Part shown: positions 55,952 to 56,314 of the stretch, piece after piece
How positions within the stretch are numbered: the first letter of the stretch is position 1
How the letters are laid out: every line of letters starts with the position of its first letter
Sequence record: PV806175.1
DNA: 64,000 nucleotides
Direction: 5' to 3' (one strand)
From: Escherichia phage CCU7
Position numbers and translations under genes: made by a program
Notes under the pieces: generated by a model
What the model was told of the DNA's origin: nothing
Database searches by the model: none
Seen by the model: the letters and a program-made list of their open reading frames with translations, nothing else

Positions 55952-56314
55952 ATGAAAGCATATCAAATTCTTGAAGGCACACACAAAGGCACTATTTATT
56001 TTGAAGACGGTACTCAAGCCCGGATTATTGCCTCTAAGACTTTTAAAGAAGACGCTATTGTAGACCCGGAAATTTTCTACGGTTTGAATGCCCGTGAAAT
56101 TGAAATTGAACATCAACCTAAAGTTAAAATTGAAGGTGGTCAACACCTGAACGTTAATGTTCTGCGTCGTGAAACTCTGGAAGATGCAGTTAAGCATCCG
56201 GAAAAATATCCGCAGCTGACCATCCGTGTATCCGGTTATGCAGTTCGCTTTAACTCTCTGACTCCGGAACAGCAGCGTGACGTTATCGCTCGTACCTTTA
56301 CTGAGAGTCTATAA
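55952..56314 (+). CDS. autonomous glycyl-radical cofactor protein (GrcA/YfiD-like)
   Basis: C-terminal glycine-radical signature RVSGYAVRF within [59 protein letters not shown]; this part has host-like codon usage (CTG/CGT/CCG rich). Confidence 0.8.

Follow-up and report, generated by a model that had tools for sequence, protein, structure and literature searches.

The vs.6 locus and its neighbours

The window analysed here is the whole stretch of 64,000 nucleotides from Escherichia phage CCU7 (sequence record PV806175.1), and the gene under study is the syntenic ortholog of T4 vs.6, which encodes Y06I (Table 1). The gene order (nudE – e – denV – ipII – vs.8 – vs.7 – vs.6 ortholog – vs.5 – vs.4 – (vs.3) – regB – vs.1 – vs – tk.4 – tk) is that of T4, and the place of the vs.6 ortholog in the denV-regB region, with vs.7 on one side and vs.5 on the other, is kept, with annotated neighbours, in CAU_ECP01, vB_SsoM_113 and T4. 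The neighbours are packed tightly on either side, the TAA stop of the vs.6 ortholog overlapping the ATG of the vs.5 homolog (56314). Some 800 phage records span most of the length of the gene, which is 100% identical to that of Escherichia phage CAU_ECP01, and the T4 protein (NC_000866 63557-63919) is identical at 112 of 120 residues. Both the gene and its function were already known: RefSeq, like hundreds of phage records, lists T4 Y06I/vs.6 as GrcA, and the note in one phage record gives the flanking ORFs as y06J and y06G and the vs.6 ortholog as T4 grcA. The local DNA of the window is 97-100% identical to that of the Mosigvirus S143_2 but only 50-90% identical to that of T4, which marks the window phage as a Mosigvirus-like T-even phage.

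Table 1. Features of the vs.6 ortholog and its immediate surroundings (window coordinates).
Feature	Position	Strand	Basis
vs.7 homolog (upstream gene)	55637-55945	+	gene order
Shine-Dalgarno GAGG, 4 nt 5' of the ATG, sharing bases with the stop codon of the vs.7 homolog	55944-55947	+	read from the sequence
vs.6/Y06I ortholog, complete CDS, 120 aa	55952-56314	+	ORF list
Phage-type 5' part (N-terminal half)	55952-56129	+	codon log-likelihood ratio, GrcA alignment, sharing among T4-like phages
E. coli grcA-derived tract (putative conversion tract), codons 61-117, gene nt 181-351	56132-56302	+	nucleotide identity, informative sites
RVSGY glycyl radical motif, codons 92-96	56225-56239	+	translation, alignments to 6owr and 1cm5/1h16
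Phage-type 3' end, GAG AGT CTA (last three sense codons) and TAA	56303-56314	+	codon comparison

A scan for promoters and terminators near the gene gave nothing above chance. The nearest and best sigma-70-like site on the plus strand, at 54626-54654 (TTTACG-17-TATAAT with an upstream TG), lies just 5' of the ipII-like gene and is a candidate early promoter for a transcript that would include vs.8, vs.7 and vs.6. As there is no promoter-like site directly upstream, the vs.6 ortholog is presumably co-transcribed with vs.8 and vs.7. Downstream, the vs.3 slot (56770-57100) holds an ORF at 56794-57093 (+) that is unrelated to that of S143_2 and of the IMG/VR locus L084, both otherwise 97-100% identical to the window; the gene in this slot is only about 50-60% identical to T4 and resembles a cassette that has been swapped in between vs.4 and regB.

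The predicted product

The product is a small stand-alone protein that lacks the catalytic barrel of pyruvate formate-lyase (PFL). The Pfam family PF01228 (Gly_radical) matches the 120-residue protein at E = 2e-18 over residues 59-101, and its best PDB match is 6owr (GrcA; E = 2.5e-42, with a phmmer alignment over residues 18-120), followed by the C-terminus of PFL. The codon of Gly95 (GGT, 56234-56236) aligns with those of Gly102 of E. coli GrcA and Gly734 of PflB, and this residue is the predicted radical site of the vs.6 product. The initial annotation, made from the letters of the window and their open reading frames, had recognized a GrcA/YfiD-like glycyl radical protein with an RVSGY signature whose last 60 or so residues match the enterobacterial protein; these database searches bear it out, and the 60 C-terminal residues are in fact 100% identical to those of E. 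coli GrcA. The C-terminal radical domain of PflB (and TdcE) has the same fold and motif and aligns over residues 57-120 (E = 3e-26).

The two halves of the protein differ greatly in their resemblance to the host protein. The N-terminal half, which is 7 residues shorter than that of GrcA, has 30% identity to GrcA residues 25-67 over 43 residues (pairwise E = 6e-6), and on this alignment it looks like a distant, strongly diverged GrcA homolog. Because of this divergent half, the window protein falls short of the 170-bit cutoff of TIGR04365, the NCBIfam equivalog model for GrcA, with 158.7 bits (233.9 for E. coli GrcA), so that it can be called an exact equivalent of host GrcA only tentatively. 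The first 60 residues are shared with other T4-like phages: 53 of 60 are identical in T4 and other Tequatrovirus members, 42 of 60 in Jiaodavirus JD18 and 29-31 of 60 in RB43-like loci. With an N-terminal half that itself looks like a distant GrcA homolog and that other T4-like phages share, the gene is probably not a fusion between unrelated sequences.

Residues 1-60 of E. coli YfiD form a disordered region that aids both binding to cleaved PFL and installation of the radical, while residues 61-127 duplicate the PFL radical domain (PMC8683613). The host-like part of the vs.6 ortholog described below begins at the residue equivalent to YfiD 68, so that nearly the whole structured domain is covered. 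That T4 Y06I restores oxygen-cleaved PFL, as the initial annotation stated, was shown biochemically by Wagner et al. 2001, as cited in PMC8683613, and the gene for Y06I is the syntenic counterpart of the window gene. According to PMC8683613, Y06I and E. coli YfiD alone have been validated in biochemical work as "spare parts" for the oxygen-cleaved enzyme. By analogy with these two, the 13-14 kDa vs.6 product would act as a stand-alone glycyl radical domain: the host PFL-activating enzyme would activate Gly95, and the activated product would then dock into host PFL whose C-terminal radical domain had been cut off by oxygen, restoring its activity. A phage copy of the gene would probably keep such repair going after the shut-off of host transcription, during microaerobic infection. 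Considering how far the N-terminal half differs from that of YfiD, recognition of the partner may differ as well.

An E. coli-derived patch within the gene

When the vs.6 ortholog was aligned to E. coli grcA codon by codon, anchored at the stop, the last 183 nucleotides (codons 61-121) were 97.3% identical, with five differences, all of them synonymous, whereas the identity over nt 1-180 was 41%, essentially random in this end-anchored alignment. Three of the five differences sit in the last three sense codons, which read GAG AGT CTA in the window and GAA AGC CTG in E. coli, so that over gene nt 181-351 only two of 171 nucleotides differ (98.8% identity), both by synonymous C-to-T changes. The synonymous codons GAG AGT CTA are those of the distant T4-like loci L094, L096 and L099. 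An informative-site test with the window gene, E. coli grcA and the RB43-like phage locus L094 as third sequence gave ratios of phage-supporting to host-supporting sites of 53:24 in nt 1-180, 0:28 in nt 181-351 and 3:0 in nt 352-360 (Fisher p = 1.8e-11 for the tract against the 5' part and 2.2e-4 for the last 9 nt against the tract). The 5' junction thus falls between 56129 and 56137-56140 and the 3' junction between 56302 and 56305.

The tract matches all 5,426 complete E. coli genomes at 97.7-98.8%, and in a megablast of the whole 64 kb against these genomes 56130-56322 was the sole match; downstream of the vs.6 stop there is no relation to E. coli sequence. The window and E. coli grcA have an exact run of up to 119 nt in common, and for a sister phage the longest such run is 175 nt. 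What came from the host is therefore a patch of some 170 bp that begins and ends inside the gene, not the entire 3' end, which sharpens the earlier suggestion of a 3' half recently derived from the host.

The codons of the patch are likewise those of the host. With codon tables drawn from 36 E. coli genes around grcA and from 78 ORFs of the window, the log-likelihood ratio of E. coli over phage usage is +0.189 log2 units per codon for codons 61-117 and -0.233 for codons 2-60, a score that is ordinary for the phage. The value of the tract is reached by only 3 of 788 in-frame 57-codon segments of the window's own ORFs (z = 3.3), two of which lie in a probably spurious antisense ORF. All five leucine codons of the tract are CTG (9% of leucine codons in the phage, 50% in E. 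coli) and all three proline codons are CCG (16% versus 57%). The GC content is 0.49 in the tract, 0.36 in the 5' half and 0.38 in the window. The GC3 of the tract (0.39) is weakly unusual, being attained by 9.6% of phage segments; the rise is mild because T-ending codons are preferred in highly expressed E. coli genes. By itself GC3 thus discriminates weakly, whereas codon identity and nucleotide identity do so strongly. The host-like codon usage noted earlier for the 3' half is more than chance, and neither outcome named beforehand as refuting, uniform usage along the gene or a lack of raised identity to host grcA, is seen. E. coli-like codon scores occur elsewhere in the window only in the ORFs 15198-15809 (+), 54766-55110 (-) and 9877-11445 (-). 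The first two look like spurious antisense frames; in the third, a long ORF, the score at the 3' end is +0.24. None of the three matches E. coli DNA by megablast.

The donor and the direction of transfer

Comparison with E. coli grcA and with the grcA of about 80 other bacterial species identifies the donor of the tract as E. coli grcA: identity is 97-99% to E. coli, 96-98% to a sister Escherichia lineage, 90-92% to Citrobacter and Trabulsiella and 81% to Salmonella, with 92% as the highest value among 79 other species. The synonymous divergence (dS) of the tract from E. coli is 0.04-0.06, as against 0.38 between E. coli and Citrobacter and 1.13 between E. coli and Salmonella; between E. coli grcA and that of a sister Escherichia lineage it is 0.05. 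In host grcA both halves show similar dS against relatives; the host gene is consequently not a mosaic, and the transfer ran from host to phage. Transfer from a phage to E. coli was rejected on the same uniformity of host dS over both grcA halves. The gene pflB was also considered as a donor and rejected, the tract being only about 79.5% identical to it.

Spread and recurrence of the patch among phages

When the E. coli tract was compared with phage records, the identities fell into discrete classes: 638 matched it at 95% or more, 8 at 90-95% and the rest at below 90%. The class at 95% and above holds both Tequatrovirus, including T4 itself, and Mosigvirus. In sliding windows, the CCU7 sequence and T4 are 98-100% identical at 56140-56289, whereas the flanks are 50-90% identical. 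Comparison of Mosigvirus-type with Tequatrovirus-type copies gives a dS of 0.435 for the 5' half and of 0.10 for the tract, in which no fixed difference separates them. Moreover, the synonymous differences are additive around E. coli (1.8 + 2.4, versus 4.0 between the genera), which places the host allele at the centre of a star. From these distances the E. coli-type patch would appear to be younger than the split between Tequatrovirus and Mosigvirus, in which case it would have been acquired repeatedly from E. coli or passed between phages.

A separate host-like patch is found in phages of Klebsiella. JD18, a Klebsiella phage of the genus Jiaodavirus, has the same gene architecture and a phage-type 3' end, but its tract is 95.9% identical to Klebsiella grcA and only 87% to E. 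coli, and it encodes the Klebsiella-type residues L, E and S (LLDAVEH, LTSEQ). With the Klebsiella tract as query, 142 phage records matched at 90% or more (62 at 95-99% and 80 at 90-95%), and the best 30 of these were all Klebsiella phages save one Salmonella phage. The Salmonella tract, used as a negative control, matched no phage at 95% or more. Host-derived patches of two types, E. coli and Klebsiella, are thus present in vs.6, and comparison of these sequences indicates that host-specific conversion of the gene happened at least twice.

Other T4-like phages have the protein without a close host match. The RB43-like, Slopekvirus-like and Roth17-like loci L089-L100 are at most about 84% identical to any host among the 80 species and Klebsiella sampled. 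In the RB43-like loci L094-L096 the identical 60 residues are encoded at only 83% nucleotide identity, which argues that the E. coli-like tract did not arise from selection on the protein or on its codons. Three RB43/Slopekvirus-like loci from IMG/VR (L099, L100 and L113) have the Klebsiella/Salmonella-type residues LLDAVEH at about 80-84% nucleotide identity to any sampled host; they could represent older conversions that have since drifted or a convergent match to the host protein.

The type of patch does not always agree with the host of isolation: the Salmonella phage pSe_SNUABM_01 and the Yersinia phage fPS-65 carry the E. coli type, and the Salmonella phage PSE-D1 carries the Klebsiella type. 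Perhaps the patch records an earlier or a main host. Gene nt 219 (window 56170) is the site of a common E. coli SNP, CGT/CGC (Arg), at which the phage alleles are C in L087 and Nami, G in L083 and T in the rest, while T4 has a mutation of the adjoining base. This position may be a mutational hot spot, or its alleles may go back to different donors; a single SNP, at a site that has also mutated in other ways, is weak evidence for separate E. coli donors.

Origin of the patch

In view of these results, we consider it very probable that the window gene is a Mosigvirus-type vs.6/Y06I ortholog, descended long ago from grcA, in which some 170 bp have been overwritten recently by host grcA through recombination or gene conversion. 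The exchange would have taken place by homologous recombination between host chromosomal DNA, or fragments of it, and the replicating phage genome, with both crossovers falling in the only part of the gene that still resembles host grcA. Confinement of the crossovers to this remaining homology would account for a 5' junction fixed where the homology begins and for last three codons that stay phage-type. At sites 357 and 358 within these codons all four allele combinations occur, as expected if the 3' endpoints vary. After a first exchange, 170 bp of near identity would presumably ease further ones.

There is background on both sides of such a mechanism. T4 recombines efficiently with homologous plasmid inserts. 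T-even phages also degrade host DNA early in infection, however, and this counts against recombination with the host as an explanation. So does the finding that the exact runs common to E. coli grcA and the unconverted phage versions are just 12-20 nt long, a short stretch on which to begin homologous exchange.

The alternative that survives best, though we regard it as improbable, is a single ancient exchange from host to phage in the ancestor of Tequatrovirus and Mosigvirus, after which selection on synonymous sites, for translation efficiency or mRNA structure, preserved the tract and there was no later exchange. The same 5' junction is found in all Tequatrovirus-type and Mosigvirus-type copies, but this is expected in any case, homology to the host gene starting at that point. 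E. coli grcA evolves slowly, as its low divergence from the sister Escherichia lineage illustrates, and the tracts of the phages Nami and CE1 have four derived changes in common, a sign that there has been some vertical descent and that not every lineage is continually reset. Selection of this kind would, however, have to explain why dS between the genera falls from 0.435 in the adjacent 5' half to 0.10 in the tract, amid flanks of 50-90% identity, and it would have to maintain codons that run opposite to the phage's own preference. Phage lineages without the patch have drifted to 76-84% nucleotide identity while keeping the protein, and the four allele combinations at sites 357 and 358 likewise speak against one exchange.

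Still less likely, to the point of being very hard to sustain, is a recent capture of the entire host grcA followed by very fast divergence of the N-terminal half, even though that half looks like a distant GrcA homolog and, being disordered in E. coli, is probably less constrained (PMC8683613). The T4-like phages with which the 5' half groups have 3' halves unlike that of E. coli, and at synonymous sites the 5' half has reached saturation against E. coli, while dS in the tract is about 0.04. The last three codons, moreover, are phage-type, and vs.6 is conserved in all six of six diverse T4-like genomes (PMC1524935). On this evidence the gene is old, the product of a capture of grcA in ancient times, and only its internal patch is young.

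That two sequences with 60 identical C-terminal residues, one of them from a gene of strong codon bias, should have converged on optimal codons with no transfer at all is barely conceivable, given that enterobacterial grcA genes whose protein is the same, or nearly so, reach only 81-93% identity to the E. coli gene, that phage L094 has the identical protein at 83% nucleotide identity, that the codon preferences of the phage differ and that the edges of identity are sharp inside a region of conserved protein. Equally negligible is an assembly artefact by which host reads were merged into the phage contig at a conserved region: host DNA does occur in phage lysates and the tract is almost identical to the host, but the patch has the same junctions in 638 independent phage records, the T4 reference among them, and the phage copies differ privately from all 5,426 E. 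coli genomes (best match 98.8%).

In the E. coli phages the patch leaves the protein unchanged, and for that reason it may be neutral in them; after a change of host it could be adaptive, an example being the three Klebsiella-type residue changes.

Comparison with known systems

The closest parallel is T4 vs.6 itself, which has the phage-type N-terminal half, the E. coli-identical tract and the same 5' junction. It differs from the window gene by seven substitutions in the N-terminal half, by R73H in the tract of the T4 reference, by last codons that read GAA AGT TTG instead of GAG AGT CTA, and by surrounding DNA that is 50-90% identical. E. coli GrcA (YfiD, 6OWR) is alike in its 60 C-terminal residues, including RVSGY, and at 169 of 171 nucleotides in codons 61-117, and unlike in its N-terminal half, to which that of the window protein is about 30% identical and 7 residues shorter.

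The pattern belongs to a known kind, intragenic recombination between host and phage. In T4-like phages a host-derived metabolic gene reportedly swaps internal segments with the host, which leaves host-like patches in it. Such a mosaic gene with a host-like patch, host-type inside and phage-type outside its breakpoints, is what we see in vs.6, and the counterpart is cyanophage psbA, for which intragenic host-phage recombination is described in Sullivan et al. 2006 (PMC1484495). The vs.6 case differs from psbA in its enterobacterial hosts, in involving T-even phages with modified DNA, in the very small size of the gene and in a patch that is bounded by residual homology. In the searchable literature we found no description of a host patch in vs.6; in PMC2993671 and PMC1524935 vs.6 figures simply as a conserved ORF that has a Gly_radical domain, with no mention of the patch. 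It may have been noted in older papers, the T4 sequence having been public for decades.

While the gene itself is an ordinary discovery, a patch with mapped junctions and a parallel Klebsiella-specific patch in a different phage genus are less so. Together they offer a clean, small and experimentally tractable case of probable gene conversion from the host chromosome into a lytic phage, one through which such exchange could be quantified and the past hosts of phages inferred from their genomes. A broader proposal, which we put forward tentatively and lean slightly against, is that the vs.6 radical domain evolves in concert with the grcA of the current host, strictly lytic T-even phages with modified DNA repeatedly copying about 170 bp by homologous recombination, which would reset the phage copy to the host allele, and each exchange restoring the homology for the next. 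If this were true, the patch would be a built-in record of recent host history and a natural assay for recombination from host to virulent phage.

T5-like and other phages also have GrcA-like genes, whose annotation is glycyl radical cofactor or pyruvate formate-lyase. These share the C-terminal domain but differ in their N-terminal halves, and with only about 73-76% identity to E. coli grcA in the 3' half they carry no recent host patch.

Variants of individual copies

Several phage copies depart from the common sequence. Variants in and near the radical domain, which is otherwise invariant, are R73H in T4 (L172), N66H and I91S, the latter adjoining RVSGY, in Nami (L165), T75I in S143_2 (L169) and E84D in ph0021 (L170), and OES_C-2 (L164) has a 6-nt deletion in the 5' half; these may be either real variants or sequencing errors. 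The vs.6 copy of a JD18-like phage (L108, IMGVR_UViG_2974754850_000001) is frameshifted in its 5' half. Finally, a 19-kb contig classed as viral (L111, IMGVR_UViG_2706794630_000006) carries a full-length Yersinia-type grcA whose tract is 91% identical to that of Y. artesiana; its upstream reading frame is the same as that of the bacterial locus, and the contig is therefore probably bacterial DNA.
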